Virus record (IMG/VR): IMGVR_UViG_3300020570_000507
Span: 1-28,613 of that record
Source: a virus
Lineage: Duplodnaviria > Caudoviricetes
Reading direction: 5' to 3' (one strand)
DNA: 28,613 nucleotides
This document shows positions 12,069 through 23,813 of the stretch, piece by piece. A program made the position numbers and the translations under genes. Position 1 is the first letter of the stretch, and every line of letters begins with the position of its first letter. The notes beneath the pieces were generated by a model, which did not search any database, had not been told where the DNA came from, and saw only the letters and a program-made list of their open reading frames with translations.

Positions 12069-12334
12069 TATGGATTGGTTGGCGGTGGATTTGGTTCTCG
12101 CTTTTCTAAAGTTGGTTCCAAATATTCTTTTTCTATTTTTCGCCGTTTATATAAATCATTAAGAATATCCAAATTTGCCCAATCATAAGTGGTATAGGGG
12201 CCGCCACCCATATACCACCAGAAAAATCTCATAAACTTCCGCTGCGGCCAATAATCTGTGGACCCAAATCCATTAGTCGTTTTAAGTATTCTGTAGTTTT
12301 TTAATTCGTCTTCCATTTCAGTAATAGTGTTCAA
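12068..12334 (-). CDS. hypothetical protein
   Basis: 88-aa coupled ORF. Confidence 0.7.
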   Translation of the reverse strand: MNTITEMEDELKNYRILKTTNGFGSTDYWPQRKFMRFFWWYMGGGPYTTYDWANLDILNDLYKRRKIEKEYLEPTLEKREPNPPPTNP

Positions 12335-13113
12335 TAGGTAAAGTCATTTAAAGACAATTCACATTCTGGCTCCCATTTTTCCACAACAGTCCGAATAATT
12401 GGTTCAGTTGGGCGAAACTTTTCAGGAATATCCAAATCTTCTGGATTTACCAGCCGTCGTTGTCTTCTTACAAAAGTTCCATTGGTAAAAAACTTAGGAA
12501 GATTCTCCCATGGATTTCCTTTTTCTGTTAGCATTCTCTCCATTTCCTGGCAGGTTTTATTCTGTAGAGTCTTATGCGAGAAAAAATGCCGAGCATACAT
12601 TGAAACCGAGTTTTTCTGTGCATCCCGTTGTCTCCATGAGAAGTTCAAATAAACTTGTTCAAGGTCTGGAACATTCCAAACTCTAGCATCAAAGCTAGGA
12701 AAGTAACCTACTTTTTCTGGCAAGAAATCTGGAAGTCTTCCACAAAAATAAGATGATGCAGATCCGGCTAAAATTGATGTGAGTTTTTGAAATTTTCCAC
12801 CAAACCAAAACTCTCGGTTAGAAAAGTTTTCCTTATCCAAATACCAATAGAGAGTGATTTCATCAGACTGACAATAACCTAATTGGGCTTCACTCTTGTC
12901 AACGAGAAACTTTGTTGTTTCAATCATTAGATCGACAAATCTTTCATCAAACGGGCGTTTGAGACCCTTGGTGAAAGAGCTAAAACAATTACCATCAATG
13001 CGGGCCATGAGTGGTAGAAATGGATCTGCTTTCCGGCCAGCTTCAATCTGCTCTTGTGCTTTCAATAAATCACCAAGTTTATCTTTGCTGTATTTGGGTT
13101 CGGTCATTTTCAT
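12331..13113 (-). CDS. Thg1-like protein (tRNA-His guanylyltransferase / 3'-5' polymerase family)
   Basis: ARIDGNCFSSFT, RPFD, GYCQSDEIT, FGGKFQKL, FDAR, WRQRDAQKNS. Confidence 0.92.
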   Translation of the reverse strand: MKMTEPKYSKDKLGDLLKAQEQIEAGRKADPFLPLMARIDGNCFSSFTKGLKRPFDERFVDLMIETTKFLVDKSEAQLGYCQSDEITLYWYLDKENFSNREFWFGGKFQKLTSILAGSASSYFCGRLPDFLPEKVGYFPSFDARVWNVPDLEQVYLNFSWRQRDAQKNSVSMYARHFFSHKTLQNKTCQEMERMLTEKGNPWENLPKFFTNGTFVRRQRRLVNPEDLDIPEKFRPTEPIIRTVVEKWEPECELSLNDFTY

Positions 13114-19412: not shown

Positions 19413-20000
19413 TCATAGAGTAAACCGAACAAATTTAGAAACTCTAATATTTTCCTTAAGAGTTCCCGCAACACTCTTTACATATTCTTCAACAGTTAGA
19501 GTATTGTCTTTAACAAAAACCTGACTCATTAGACACATCTCTTTCAGGCGTTTTGCAACTCTACCTTCAACAATTTTAGTCTTAATTGCATCGGGTTTGG
19601 CTGCAAGGTCATTTTTACCCATTTCAATTTGAGCTTCTTTCTCTGAAATTTCACTAGGAATGTCATCAACCGAAACATAAGAAACTGCAGGATATGCTGC
19701 AACCTGCATTCCCAAATTGCGAACAAGCTCTAGAAACTCTTCTGAACGAGCAACAAAATCTGTTTCACAAAGAACTTCAATCAAAACACCAACTTTACCG
19801 CCCGTGTGAATGTAAGAGCCAATAGTTCCTTCAGTTGTTTGTCTACCAGAATTGCCATCTGCAATTGAAATTCCTTTCTGTCTGAGCCAAATAATTGCCC
19901 TAGATTCATCGTCCGAATTGGCGGCTAGGGCCTCTTTACAGAGCATCATTCCGGCTCCAGTCTTTTGCCGAAGTTCTTTAATTTGTTCAATGGTTGCCAT
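19413..20000 (-). CDS. tsf: translation elongation factor Ts (short cyanobacterial type)
   Basis: [72 protein letters not shown]. Confidence 0.96.
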
Positions 20001-20028: not shown

Positions 20029-20185
20029 TGCCCTCGGAGAGATTTGAACTCACTATTGATAGACTTAATGTTTCGTTCAGGAAGATCGCCTTATGAGGGA
20101 GGTTCTTATCGGTGTGGATTCAACACACCTATCCAACACTACTTTATTAAGTTGAATCCTATCTTACCATACCAATGGCAAGGGC
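20029..20185 (-). ncRNA. 157-nt tRNA-like RNA with large structured insert
   Basis: Acceptor GCCCUUG/CGAGGGC plus discriminator A; T arm GUGAG-UUCAAAU-CUCUC; internal helices GAUAG/CUAUC, ACUUAAU/AUUAAGU and GGUGUG/CACACC. Confidence 0.7.
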
Positions 20186-20188
20186 ATT

Positions 20189-20218: not shown

Positions 20219-20441
20219 ATACCGGACCCAGAAGTTCTCTTTCATACTTCTCGGTTTGACATCTTTCTGGGCTATGTGCCCAGCGATTATCAATAGTCGC
20301 CCTGGGGATCAAACCCAGCCTAAGGCCCCAGTCCAGGGCAAATCGCTTATAAGGCGACTCCGAACATCAGTTCTGACGACCGAGCGGATGAAAGGAAGTT
20401 TTTGGGTAGGCGAACCTACCTTTTCTACTTTCCCGGTATAG
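20217..20441 (-). ncRNA. about 225-nt multi-stem RNA (possibly manA RNA motif) enclosing a tRNA
   Basis: Closing helix CUAUACCGG/CCGGUAUAG; GGUAGG-UUCG-CCUACC, CUGGGC/GCCCAG and AGAAGU/ACUUCU stems. CAUCCGC, GAUGUC and GUAUGAAAG recall cyanophage manA RNAs (from memory, unverified). Confidence 0.55.
20294..20381 (-). tRNA. atypical tRNA-Ile(UAU)
   Basis: Acceptor GGUCGUC/GGCGACU+A; minimal D arm GAAC-UGAU-GUUC; 6-bp anticodon stem with loop CU-UAU-AA; long variable arm; T arm CUGGG-UUUGAUC-CCCAG; no encoded CCA. Confidence 0.78.
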
Positions 20442-20554: not shown

Positions 20555-21130
20555 CTACTGTGAAAGTAGCATAGAAGATTTAAGTCTAAGTTCTGCGTGA
20601 ATTTCTCTATGACAATTAGAACATACACAAATACATTTATCCAGTTCACGTTTTTGATTTTCCCAACTCTTATGCTTTATGTTTCCAAAGTTTTTATCCT
20701 TTTCCTTTGGGTTTATATGATGGAATTCTAGAGCATCAACACATTTATTATAATCGCATCTTTCGCATTTTCCACCTTTATACTCTACAGCTTTCTTTTT
20801 AGAATTTCTCCACCTTTCTATAGATTTTTTATTAGAACATTTTTTACAGTTGGGTGCCCATACTCGTCTTCCTTTTCTCCAATAACCAGTTTCAACATTT
20901 AAATCTATATCACAGGAATTACATTTTTGTATTGGGTTACCATTATCTCTTTTTATTGTGTGTTTATTGCCATTGACATAAACCCCTTCTTTAAAAGATT
21001 TATAGTGAGTCTTTAGATTGTGTTGTTTTAACCAATATCTAATTGTGGTATAGCTTTTATTTGTTAATTTTGATATTTGCCTTATTGATAATTTTTGGTC
21101 AATAAATTCTTTTAAAGTAGAATATTCCAT
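20555..21130 (-). CDS. HNH endonuclease with N-terminal HTH (free-standing homing-endonuclease type)
   Basis: SIRQISK..SYTTIRYWL HTH; CxxC..CxxC; KGGKCERC..ALEFHH..ELDKCICVCSNCHREIH. Confidence 0.88.
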   Translation of the reverse strand: MEYSTLKEFIDQKLSIRQISKLTNKSYTTIRYWLKQHNLKTHYKSFKEGVYVNGNKHTIKRDNGNPIQKCNSCDIDLNVETGYWRKGRRVWAPNCKKCSNKKSIERWRNSKKKAVEYKGGKCERCDYNKCVDALEFHHINPKEKDKNFGNIKHKSWENQKRELDKCICVCSNCHREIHAELRLKSSMLLSQ

Positions 21131-21196: not shown

Positions 21197-21279
21197 CGGG
21201 TCCCGGATGAATTGAACATCGTACCCTCCTTCCAGCGTTTAAGGGACCGCGTTAGAAGCACGGTGCTGGGACGGGACCC
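21197..21279 (-). tRNA. D-armless tRNA-Arg(UCU)-like RNA
   Basis: 8-bp acceptor GGGUCCCG/CGGGACCC+G; 4-bp T stem GAUG-UUCAAUU-CAUC; anticodon arm ACCGUG-CUUCUAA-CGCGGU; only 7 nt where the D arm should be. Confidence 0.7.
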
Positions 21280-21339
21280 ATAATAAAACCCGAAACAAAT
21301 CGGATTGTCTGTCTATTTAGACCCCCTTTGCTTGACCCT

Positions 21340-21399
21340 TTAAGAATAACACAAAACCACCTAAACGGTAAAAGCGTGTACCAGTTGTTCAAGTGTCCA
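21340..21399 (-). promoter_or_regulatory. early promoter, duplicated at 21482-21541
   Basis: TGGACAC-TTGAAC-AACTGGTACAC-27 nt-TATTCT; 60-bp imperfect direct repeat at a 142-bp offset. Confidence 0.8.
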
Positions 21400-21478: not shown

Positions 21479-21481
21479 TCA

Positions 21482-21541
21482 TTAAGAATAACACAAACTC
21501 AGCCAAACGGTAAGAACGAGTGCCAGTTGTTCAAGTGTCCA
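21482..21541 (-). promoter_or_regulatory. early promoter motif copy
   Basis: TGGACAC-TTGAAC-AACTGGCACTC-27 nt-TATTCT. Confidence 0.8.
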
Positions 21542-21544
21542 AAC

Positions 21545-22063
21545 TCAATAAGAACCTGGCTCCTGATAAACGGTAACAAAAACTGTGCCCTTCTTATAAA
21601 GAGGAAGTAGTTTATCCCGTAGATCAATGTTATAAAGTCTCACACAACCTAAAGTCTGAACCAACCTCTGTTTAGGTGCCCACGATGCCGGCCATCCATT
21701 ACTCGACCCTCCGCCATGAATCATAAGACCAGCTCTACCATATTTCGCTTCCTGGCCTTCCAATTCTACCATATCAAATGATAGCCATCCATAGGCCATT
21801 AGCGTGCGATCAAAAAATGGATTGGGGCCATACTTAGCATAGTCATTATAGAGTTCTCCTAGACGATAAAGACCGGGAACGGTGTCACTACCATAATCGG
21901 AAAACACATAATCGCTTCCTTGACCTCGTGCAAGAGCTGGTATTTCCCATAAGAGTCTACCATTAAAATCGTATGCTTTTGCGGTTTCGGTGACATCATT
22001 AACGATTATATGAGTATCTCCCCGCTTAAAGCCAAAGTCTTGTGGCCTCTTTCCTTTGGTCAT
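21545..22063 (-). CDS. L,D-transpeptidase (YkuD-like) domain protein
   Basis: DTVPGLY, LMIHGG..TLGCVRL catalytic His/Cys motif; late promoter upstream. Confidence 0.75.
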   Translation of the reverse strand: MTKGKRPQDFGFKRGDTHIIVNDVTETAKAYDFNGRLLWEIPALARGQGSDYVFSDYGSDTVPGLYRLGELYNDYAKYGPNPFFDRTLMAYGWLSFDMVELEGQEAKYGRAGLMIHGGGSSNGWPASWAPKQRLVQTLGCVRLYNIDLRDKLLPLYKKGTVFVTVYQEPGSY

Positions 22064-22430: not shown

Positions 22431-22486
22431 AAAAAGGTCAAAGGGCTCTCATAAAGAGTAGCCCATACATAACTAAGACAATTAAT
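22431..22486. repeat. about 55-bp direct repeat with terminator-like hairpin, copy 1
   Basis: aaaaaggtcaaagggctctc..gcccatacataactaag(a/t)caattaat; other copy at 23826-23880. Confidence 0.9.
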
Positions 22487-23813
22487 CATAACTATTTAAA
22501 TCATTAACTTCTATACCTTTGTTTCTCAAGAGTTCGCGAATATTATCAGCTTTTGCATAATCACGATTAGCTCTAGCGATATTGCGCTCTTCAATCAATG
22601 AGCGAATCTCTTCACTTTTCTCCTTTTCACCGGAAGAAACCTCATAAACAAACCCCAACACCCCTGACAACTCTTGTAAGAGTTTCCAGCTATCATCACA
22701 GCTATTAGTTCTTATTAAACGAGCCAATTGAAATAATTCTCCAACGGCAACTGAAGTATTGAGATCATCATTGAGAGCCGAAATGAACCTATTTCTAATG
22801 TGCTCTAAGTCTGTGCTAAGGCTTAGAGATTCAGTGACTTCACGGTTAATTCCAAATGATAGCGCAGTATTTAAAATCTTCCACCCGTTGACTGCAGATT
22901 TCATTGCTTCCATATTAAAATCTATCGGTTTTCTGTAGTGGGCTTGCAATACAAATAACCTAATGGCCATAGGACTAATGCCAAATTCAATTAGATTTCT
23001 GATCGTGGTGAAATTTCCTAGAGATTTAGCCATCTTTTCCTCGCCAACGGTAACGAAACCATTGTGTAGCCAATAATGGGCTAATTCCTTACCGTTAGCA
23101 ATTTCAGATTGTGCTATTTCATTTTCGTGATGTGGAAAGATTAAATCCGATCCACCCAAATGAATGTCAATAGTTTCACCAAGTTCTTGACGAATCATTG
23201 CGGAGCATTCAATATGCCAGCCCGGTCTTCCCGGCCCCCAAGGAGAATCAAAACTAGGCTCATCAGAATTTACACCTTTCCAAAGAGCAAAATCAAACGG
23301 ATGATGTTTTTTTGTGTCTTCTTGGCTGCGCTGTTGTTCTAACTTGCGACCACTCAGTTTACCATATTCAGCATATTTCATAACTGAAAAATAAACATCT
23401 CCATCTATAGAATATGCAGCACCTTTATCTGTGAGAACTTGAATCATATTGCGAATTGCACCGAGGCTATTCGTCACTCTTGGCATTTTATCGGCAGGAA
23501 GTATGTTCAAGGTCTTCATATCTTCTTCGAAAGCCTGAATATTACGTTCACTAACTGCTTCTATAGAGGTTCCTTCTAATTTAGCTCTTGCTATAATTTT
23601 ATCGTCAATATCAGTAAAATTCTGAACGAACTTAACAACATATCCTTGCCACATTAGATGTCTCCTTAGAACATCCCACACAATATAGCTACGTGCATGT
23701 CCTAAATGACACAGATCATAAACAGTAACACCGCAGCAATAAATTAATACTTTACCAGGAGTTATTGGAATAAACTCTTCTTTAGTTTTAGTGATACTGT
23801 TAGTTAGGTACAT
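22482..23813 (-). CDS. cysS: cysteinyl-tRNA synthetase
   Basis: [17 protein letters not shown] (HIGH), [49 protein letters not shown] (KMSKS). Confidence 0.97.

Follow-up and report, generated by a model that had tools for sequence, protein, structure and literature searches.

A widespread phage RNA gene of the tRNA-Arg(UCU) type in which a pseudoknot appears to take the place of the D stem

The stretch of DNA analyzed here (the window; 28,613 nucleotides in full) is a 28.6-kb fragment of a T4-like phage with genes for PhoH, thymidylate synthase, and NrdA/B. A freshwater cyanobacterial host may be supposed from its promoter-like repeats and from word matches to the locus in two metatranscriptome runs from lakes. 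The window also carries a translation set that is unusual for a T4-like phage, namely CysRS (22482-23813), EF-Ts (19413-20000), and a Thg1-family guanylyltransferase (12331-13113), all on the minus strand. The element of interest is intergenic, also on the minus strand, and lies between an L,D-transpeptidase-like gene (a weak Pfam hit) and an HNH endonuclease gene (Table 1). The latter is accessory, being present in the related locus L004 and missing from L003. No split tRNA was seen by eye in the window.

Table 1. Parts of the element and features of its surroundings in the window.
Feature	Position	Strand	Remarks
Rewired tRNA-Arg(UCU)-type RNA gene	21197..21279	-	83 nt up to the discriminator G; CCA unencoded
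Acceptor stem 5' strand, 8 bp	21272..21279	-	8/8 paired in 68/82 members, 7/8 in 13
7-nt linker	21265..21271	-	Last 5 nt (21265-21269) form one pseudoknot strand
Anticodon arm: 6-bp stem, 7-nt loop	21246..21264	-	Anticodon UCU at 21254-21256
Short helix Y, 5' strand (CCC)	21243..21245	-	Stands where the base of a variable arm would be
Pseudoknot helix, second strand (GCUGG)	21232..21236	-	Probable equivalent of the D-stem 5' strand
Relocated D-loop-like segment (AAGGA)	21227..21231	-	Purine, variable base, GG, A; putative equivalents of G18/G19 and A20
Short helix Y, 3' strand (GGG)	21224..21226	-	From alignment and family parse
T arm: 4-bp stem, canonical 7-nt T loop	21206..21220	-	98.2% paired in alignment
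Acceptor 3' strand and discriminator G (21197)	21197..21205	-	From family parse
HNH endonuclease gene	20555..21130	-	67 nt downstream of the element; phrog_2255, E 3.6e-31
Leader hairpin and T-rich run	21287..21306	-	Just before the 5' end; terminator-like
TAAATA, late-promoter-like	21314..21319	-	Ends 34 nt upstream of the element
Repeated early-promoter-like motif	21343..21398	-	Ends in a -10-like hexamer; 7 minus-strand copies in the window; putative function

By comparison with the promoters of T4-like cyanophages, the repeated motif and the TAAATA may be an early and a late promoter, respectively; a sigma-70 scan listed neither. TAAATA is also found upstream of the relatives of the element in L003 and L004, and within 60 nt in 13 of 80 members of the family described below. 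The repeat stands in two tandem upstream copies (21343-21398 and 21480-21545, minus strand), and L003 and L004 differ in how many copies they have and in the sequence between them, a sign that the repeats may recombine.

Other tRNA-like sequences are found nearby. Just upstream of EF-Ts is an RNA of approximately 155 nt (20029-20186, minus strand) with a 7-bp acceptor-like stem, a T arm, and a 9-bp inner stem; it is approximately 97% conserved in L003 and L004, with the changes clustered in the T arm and acceptor, has no Rfam hit, and recalls the unexplained stable RNAs that annotations of the T4 and T5 tRNA clusters list. A second, short element (20293-20359, minus strand) possesses a 7-bp acceptor, a 5-bp T stem, and a central hairpin with no D stem, and is followed by two more hairpins (20225-20290); it occurs in L004 and not in L003, where three ordinary tRNAs stand instead. 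One contig from a metatranscriptome run, possibly of DNA origin, covers 20230-20386. EF-Ts was considered as a partner of the element and rejected, since, of 12 related loci, just 3 have the element upstream of it (L002, the twin of the window; L003; and L004). Permuted tmRNA genes were seen near phage EF-Ts homologues (L005:10656-10966, L007:9777-10103, and L010:9173-9483).

An earlier note, made from the letters of the window, had described the element as a D-armless 8/4 tRNA-Arg(UCU)-like RNA. The 8-bp acceptor stem (8/8 paired) and 4-bp T stem that it listed are present in the window copy, the T loop being a 7-nt UUCAAUU, as are the 6-bp anticodon stem with its CUUCUAA loop, the 7-nt linker in place of a D arm, and the complementarity between CCAGC and GCUGG. 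Its 5-bp variable hairpin stood only in part: the first 2-3 bp are kept across the family, whereas the full 5 bp are not conserved. The two extra pairs would draw in a G and an A that are conserved in the GGA loop; of the 19 members that start with CCC, 14 show U-A and 15 show U-G at these pairs, and compensatory change is not seen.

ARAGORN found nothing in the window, and Rfam 15 gave no matches at E ≤ 1. The window element has a fold z-score of -2.7, with 1 of 200 shuffles equally stable. With the pseudoknot left out of the calculation, its nested MFE favors a different hairpin, at -34.2 kcal/mol versus -27.8 kcal/mol for the proposed fold, and only 55 of 82 family members show the anticodon stem in their nested MFE. 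As the anticodon arm is lost from the nested MFE of the window copy, where only the acceptor and T arm are regained, the claim needed homologues, and the proposed structure rests on covariation, not on energy.

The first two homologues came from EF-Ts relatives, and their pseudoknot sequences had changed yet still paired. Pattern scans of viral, metagenome, and genome collections, combined with a structure descriptor, returned 98 descriptor hits, of which 27 were dropped by eye as ordinary tRNAs or chance and 71 were kept; these 71 members make up the alignment used for covariation, and the final parsed set holds 82 distinct sequences, with L414 replaced by its cultured twin L517. The family has at least 82 distinct sequences and is larger than the parsed set. 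A pattern of GGAAGGAGGG plus the T loop was discarded, as nearly all of its 108 loci were chance. Most members were found with patterns that fix the anticodon loop, the CC, and the T loop, and counts for these parts are biased for that reason. A covariance model of the family (R1) gives its members 42-98 bits and ordinary tRNAs 30 bits or less; the window element, itself a training member, scores 82.5 bits. ARAGORN at default settings detected none of the 82 members.

The members were drawn from cultured phages and phage contigs, with a few from MAG contigs. By blastn, cultured-phage members are found in phages of Acinetobacter, Escherichia, Salmonella, Aeromonas, Vibrio, Salicola, Nitrincola, Pseudomonas, and Rhizobium, and no tRNA annotation of them was present among the matches listed. 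One member alone matches 345 cultured-phage records, 304 of them Vibrio phages and many near-clonal; none of the 60 records listed annotates it as a tRNA. The family is, then, widespread among phages and unannotated. The window copy itself had no blastn match among cultured phages, although other members did. Cellular copies were seen in 2 of 151 Acidobacteriota genomes, both within tRNA arrays, and a match in an Alphaproteobacteria MAG (L383, a 2.6-kb contig of the window's clade) is probably a binned phage piece. Plasmids gave only short chance matches or none, E. coli genomes lacked the family, and so did the T4 and T5 regions and records searched; T4 RNA C and RNA D differ from it. In two metatranscriptome runs, searched as contigs, one 151-nt contig covers a relative of the element at its 3' end, which we do not count as evidence of transcription because a DNA origin is possible.

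The anticodons of the 82 members are UCU (76), GUA (3), CCU (1), UCG (1), and UAU (1), the UCU share being inflated because one pattern scan fixed the anticodon loop. Copies of the architecture with GUA (Tyr), UAU (Ile), and UCG or CCU (Arg) anticodons can be inspected at L393:1868-1957 (minus strand), L513:513-600, L518:1484-1572, L340:979-1061, L492:431-517 (minus strand), and L516:2401-2488. In small phages of Pseudomonas and Rhizobium, no other strong match to the family stands in the record beside the Tyr form. The Acidobacteriota MAG tRNA arrays with a rewired Arg gene (L385/L556 and L557) are of similar gene order, and the spacers of L557 are rich in short repeats. Phage and MAG arrays also include tRNA-Ile(UAU) genes in which a long variable region goes with a normal D arm (L392, L415, L468, L482, L503, and L385:1499-1590), and tRNA calls with a CUA (amber suppressor-like) anticodon occur in Lazarus, Maestro, and AhSzw-1 (L510:428-502; L558, L559, and L561).

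The earlier note had proposed that homologues be checked for covariation of CCAGC with GCUGG. In the 71-member alignment, this helix is 98.9% paired, all five of its pairs show two-sided changes, its covariation score was reached by none of 500 shuffles, and every other helix covaries as well. Slid registers are 32-53% paired, versus 93% of cells for the whole structure (71-row alignment). Within the set of 82, the top 18 corrected covarying column pairs are all proposed base pairs, and 78 members have all five pseudoknot pairs, versus a shuffled mean of 14.5 and a maximum of 26; 38 distinct pseudoknot helix sequences occur, and the shuffle controls ignore kinship. Helix Y is CC/GG in 71 of 82 members, a share partly fixed by the search patterns, and AC/GU, AGC/GCU, GCC/GGC, or GUC/GAC in the remaining 11. 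All 82 have a linker of 7-9 nt and no D stem-loop between the acceptor and anticodon stems. The 12-bp acceptor and T branch is kept as 8/4, and the 7-nt anticodon loop (Y32, U33, R37) and the T loop UUCRANY are kept too, again partly fixed by the search patterns.

One might still suspect a decayed ordinary tRNA or a chance fold when ARAGORN detects none of 82 members and Rfam has no match in the window. Against this stand 82 distinct members, 46-90% identical to the window copy, whose 38 helix sequences keep pairing; the covariation and family-wide pairing rule this explanation out. As judged from these alignments, the pseudoknot is real, and the proposal of an alternative tRNA architecture with a core rebuilt by pseudoknotting is borne out to that extent; the outcome that the earlier note had named as refuting it, no covariation and homologues pointing to decay, did not occur. 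The wiring order that the comparison establishes at the level of predicted secondary structure is the acceptor 5' strand, a 7-nt linker with the putative D-stem 3' strand, the anticodon arm, a 2-3-bp helix, a connector, the putative D-stem 5' strand, an R-N-G-G-A loop, the closing of helix Y, the T arm, and the acceptor 3' strand.

Is such an RNA D-armless? There is indeed no D hairpin in its usual place, but the label does not hold for the RNA as a whole, as the pseudoknot helix bears D-stem signatures and a GG loop. The usual D-stem pairs are G:C at 10:25 and U:A at 11:24, and the top pairs of the pseudoknot helix are G10:C25-like in 65 of 82 members and U11:A24-like in 45. Its first strand leads directly on to the anticodon stem, in the manner of a D-stem 3' strand, and the linker strand of the window copy would be the equivalent of that strand, continuous with the anticodon stem. 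After the second strand there follow a purine (82/82), one base, and then GG (81/82). In the Acinetobacter phage Lazarus, the last two bases of the first strand sit inside a 19-nt stretch held in common with the canonical tRNA of phage Berthold, where they are D-stem positions 24-25. These signatures, the purine-N-GG order, and the overlap between Lazarus and Berthold lead us to read the D-stem 5' strand and loop as having moved behind the anticodon arm. The pseudoknot helix is, on this comparative evidence, a rewired D stem that appears to retain its GG loop and A20 equivalent behind it. In the normal tRNA fold, position 8 lies near 21, 45 near 10, and 20 near 47-48; by analogy, the rewired links would join points that already touch.

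The earlier note had stated that ArgRS normally uses A20 of the D loop, and that A is present behind the relocated GG rather than absent. It follows the GG in 75 of 78 members with an Arg anticodon, versus 0 of 4 others (Fisher p 2e-5, ignoring kinship, with only n=4 non-Arg members), and the remaining 3 of the 78 carry U. The discriminator is A, G, or U in 77 of these 78; G73 occurs in 30 of the 78 and in the window copy. All three GUA members have G1:C72 and A73. The identity elements thus seem to track the anticodon. For bacterial tRNA-Arg, the identity set is given as A20, C35, U/G36, and A/G/U73 (PMC9976931). In sequence, this set is present in the family, with the relocated A as the putative counterpart of position 20. 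CCA is encoded in 59 of 82 members and unencoded in the window copy and throughout its clade (0/11); the three ordinary tRNAs of L003 likewise encode none. Among the 326 Arg codons of 33 ORFs in the window, AGA, with 120, is used most.

Arrays of related phages allow the rewired gene to be compared with an ordinary one at the same position. The slot between tRNA-Thr and tRNA-Asn holds the rewired form in the Acinetobacter T4-like phages Lazarus and Maestro, and canonical tRNA-Arg(UCU) in Berthold, Konradin, and AbTZA1; the 19-nt stretch identical in the rewired (Lazarus) and canonical (Berthold) alleles covers the anticodon arm. From these alignments, the rewired RNA evidently replaces the ordinary tRNA-Arg(UCU) at the same locus by allelic exchange. 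Canonical Arg(UCU) co-occurs in only 1 of 46 UCU carriers (the jumbo phage G013), a count weakened by the many viral records that are fragments; its spacing pattern matched 10 of 50 records and, by inspection, was real only in the T4 control and G013. The arrays of Lazarus, Maestro, Av-05, AhSzw-1, SCTP-2, and G012, with 10-38 relaxed ARAGORN calls each, contain no canonical Arg(UCU), a gap that the rewired gene would fill; AhSzw-1 has canonical Arg(ACG) with tandem rewired UCU and CCU copies.

The exchange bears on the suggestion that the RNA is a decoy, that is, a processed and perhaps charged mimic that soaks up a tRNA-targeting defense nuclease or toxin and does not decode. Its anticodon loop is identical to that of canonical phage tRNA-Arg(UCU), as a bait's would be, phage tRNAs do counter tRNA nucleases (PMC11555353, PMC13096335, PMC12445682), and there are irregular 8/4 tRNAs that accept an amino acid without serving in translation (PMC5389517). 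A decoy, however, should add to a working tRNA, whereas the rewired RNA replaces one at the same locus and rarely accompanies it, and its synthetase identity elements vary with the anticodon. We consider a decoy rather improbable; the earlier note had offered it beside an AGA decoder, and the decoder is much better supported.

Split genes occur at 3 of 59 loci (L420, L451, and L460), where a rewired gene and an endonuclease ORF stand between the halves of an ordinary tRNA; the 5' half bears the D-loop GGA of arginine tRNAs, and in L420 the split falls inside the UCU loop. Orphan 5' tRNA halves are found in L424, L446, and L463. The insertion site in the split genes is the anticodon arm of the ordinary tRNA gene. 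L420, L442, L446, L458, L460, and L463 have one endonuclease family in common (phrog_15137), and L451 has a second split tRNA upstream with another ORF inside.

Such loci invite the view that the gene is a DNA-level passenger, a cleavage-proof stand-in used by homing endonucleases that cut tRNA-Arg genes, which would need little function as RNA. Besides the split genes, the first downstream ORF was found at 51 loci and, among the 35 scanned with PHROGs, 13 match endonuclease families, a count that has no baseline from tRNA clusters in general. The other 22 lack an adjoining endonuclease, L003 has the element without the window's HNH gene, and the deep compensatory change shows selection on the folded RNA. 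A mere passenger is, therefore, very unlikely.

How does the family relate to known RNAs? Canonical tRNA-Arg(UCU), as in T4, T5, and Berthold, has the same 12-bp branch, CUUCUAA loop, and T loop, a GG with an A after it, and the same location in tRNA arrays, as well as the 3' CCA that part of the family encodes. In contrast, the family is 8/4 rather than 7/5, has a 5-bp D-like helix and no D hairpin, and places the D-stem 5' strand and loop behind the anticodon arm, so that a pseudoknot forms. The tRNA-like domain of tmRNA, bacterial Y RNAs, and circularly permuted tRNA genes also have no normal D stem or have reordered gene parts, but they are without a true anticodon arm or mature to a normal cloverleaf, whereas the mature chain of this family is itself predicted to be reordered.

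D-armless mitochondrial tRNA-Ser likewise has only a short connector from acceptor to anticodon stem (PMC7609411). The mitochondrial RNAs lose the D arm and have a flexible core, whereas the family, made up of genes of bacterial viruses, keeps a rewired D-like helix and the GG; that review does not mention phage, pseudoknot, or permuted. The tRNA-like structures of plant viruses are also viral, pseudoknotted, and read by host synthetases (PMC13191261, PMC9976931), but their pseudoknot makes the acceptor stem at the 3' end of a genome, and in the family it is the D stem that is made this way, in a gene that stands alone and has normal ends.

Allo-tRNAs and 8/4 tRNA-Ser/His likewise have an 8/4 (sometimes 9/3) branch and a longer anticodon stem, and they occur in phages and Acidobacteria, with UAU and UCU among their anticodons (PMC5389517). 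Allo-tRNAs possess a long variable arm as well as a D stem-loop, and most are charged with Ser or Ala whatever the anticodon (PMC5389517). The rewired RNA might, therefore, be a missense suppressor of this type, charged with Ser through a long variable region and G73 and inserting Ser at AGA; the 8/4 branch, the G73 of the window copy, the long segment between its anticodon and T arms, and the existence of a 9/3 allo-tRNA with UCU (PMC5389517) would all fit. The family, however, lacks both the tRNA-Sec-like D stem-loop with a tetraloop and a long helix of the variable arm that carries serine identity: conservation there extends to just 2-3 bp, the loop is taken up by the pseudoknot, and G73 is found in a minority of Arg members. 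Moreover, the RNA swaps with a true tRNA-Arg, and the published UCU allo-tRNA has an ordinary D stem-loop (PMC5389517). We regard this suppressor as a long shot. The word pseudoknot is absent from the supplement text of PMC5389517, and, as far as the text of that source goes, the family is not an allo-tRNA; the five-stem forms in its Figures S5/S6 lie outside the comparison and may bear on the UAU member.

No description of the rewired chain topology was found in the literature covered, which left out most subscription journals. The portions available of PMC13191261 and PMC13056530 do not describe the family, and nothing in the Schlafen paper covered bears on it.

Weighing these alternatives, we think it likely, on the sequence comparisons, that the rewired RNA is an arginine tRNA charged by the host and reading AGA codons. 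Like a D stem, the pseudoknot helix would stack on the anticodon stem, and the GG would dock on the T loop, rebuilding the elbow and an L-shaped fold. Host RNase P, a 3' nuclease, and the CCA-adding enzyme would mature the RNA; host ArgRS would read the relocated A20 together with C35, U36, and G73; and EF-Tu would deliver the charged product for decoding of AGA. There is precedent for 8/4 tRNAs that can translate in E. coli (PMC5389517).

Why phages would keep this form is a separate question. The reason we favor, close to an even bet, is that the form escapes nucleases or toxins of the host which recognize an ordinary tRNA body. Defense nucleases do cut tRNA bodies, as Septu and retron-Eco7 do at tRNA-Tyr's variable loop, and phage variants resist (PMC13096335, PMC12445682, PMC11555353), which fits the Tyr members of the family; no defense nuclease aimed at tRNA-Arg(UCU) was found in the papers covered. 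Immunity of the gene to a linked homing endonuclease is a less probable reason, and a neutral alternative fold is somewhat less probable again. Tentatively, and with rather more doubt than confidence, one may go further and propose a second, non-cloverleaf topology of working tRNA, a pseudoknotted L-shape chassis that serves Arg (UCU, CCU, UCG), Tyr (GUA), and Ile (UAU) and might be traded among phages of many hosts because defense nucleases that read the D and variable regions fail to cut it while synthetases, EF-Tu, and the ribosome accept it.

What was not found described in the literature covered is the chain topology, in which half of the D arm lies behind the anticodon arm; a function as tRNA is what we infer. 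Researchers annotating phage genomes should be aware of this blind spot: standard tools miss the family and the records listed carry no tRNA annotation for it, and, therefore, phage tRNA inventories and analyses of codon compensation undercount Arg(UCU). The natural pair of alleles at one locus, in Lazarus and Berthold, makes function directly testable. If decoding proves true, the order of the cloverleaf arms would be dispensable in bacterial translation and the L shape would be reachable by another path of the chain, with consequences for how tRNAs evolved and for designing tRNAs that are orthogonal or resist nucleases.
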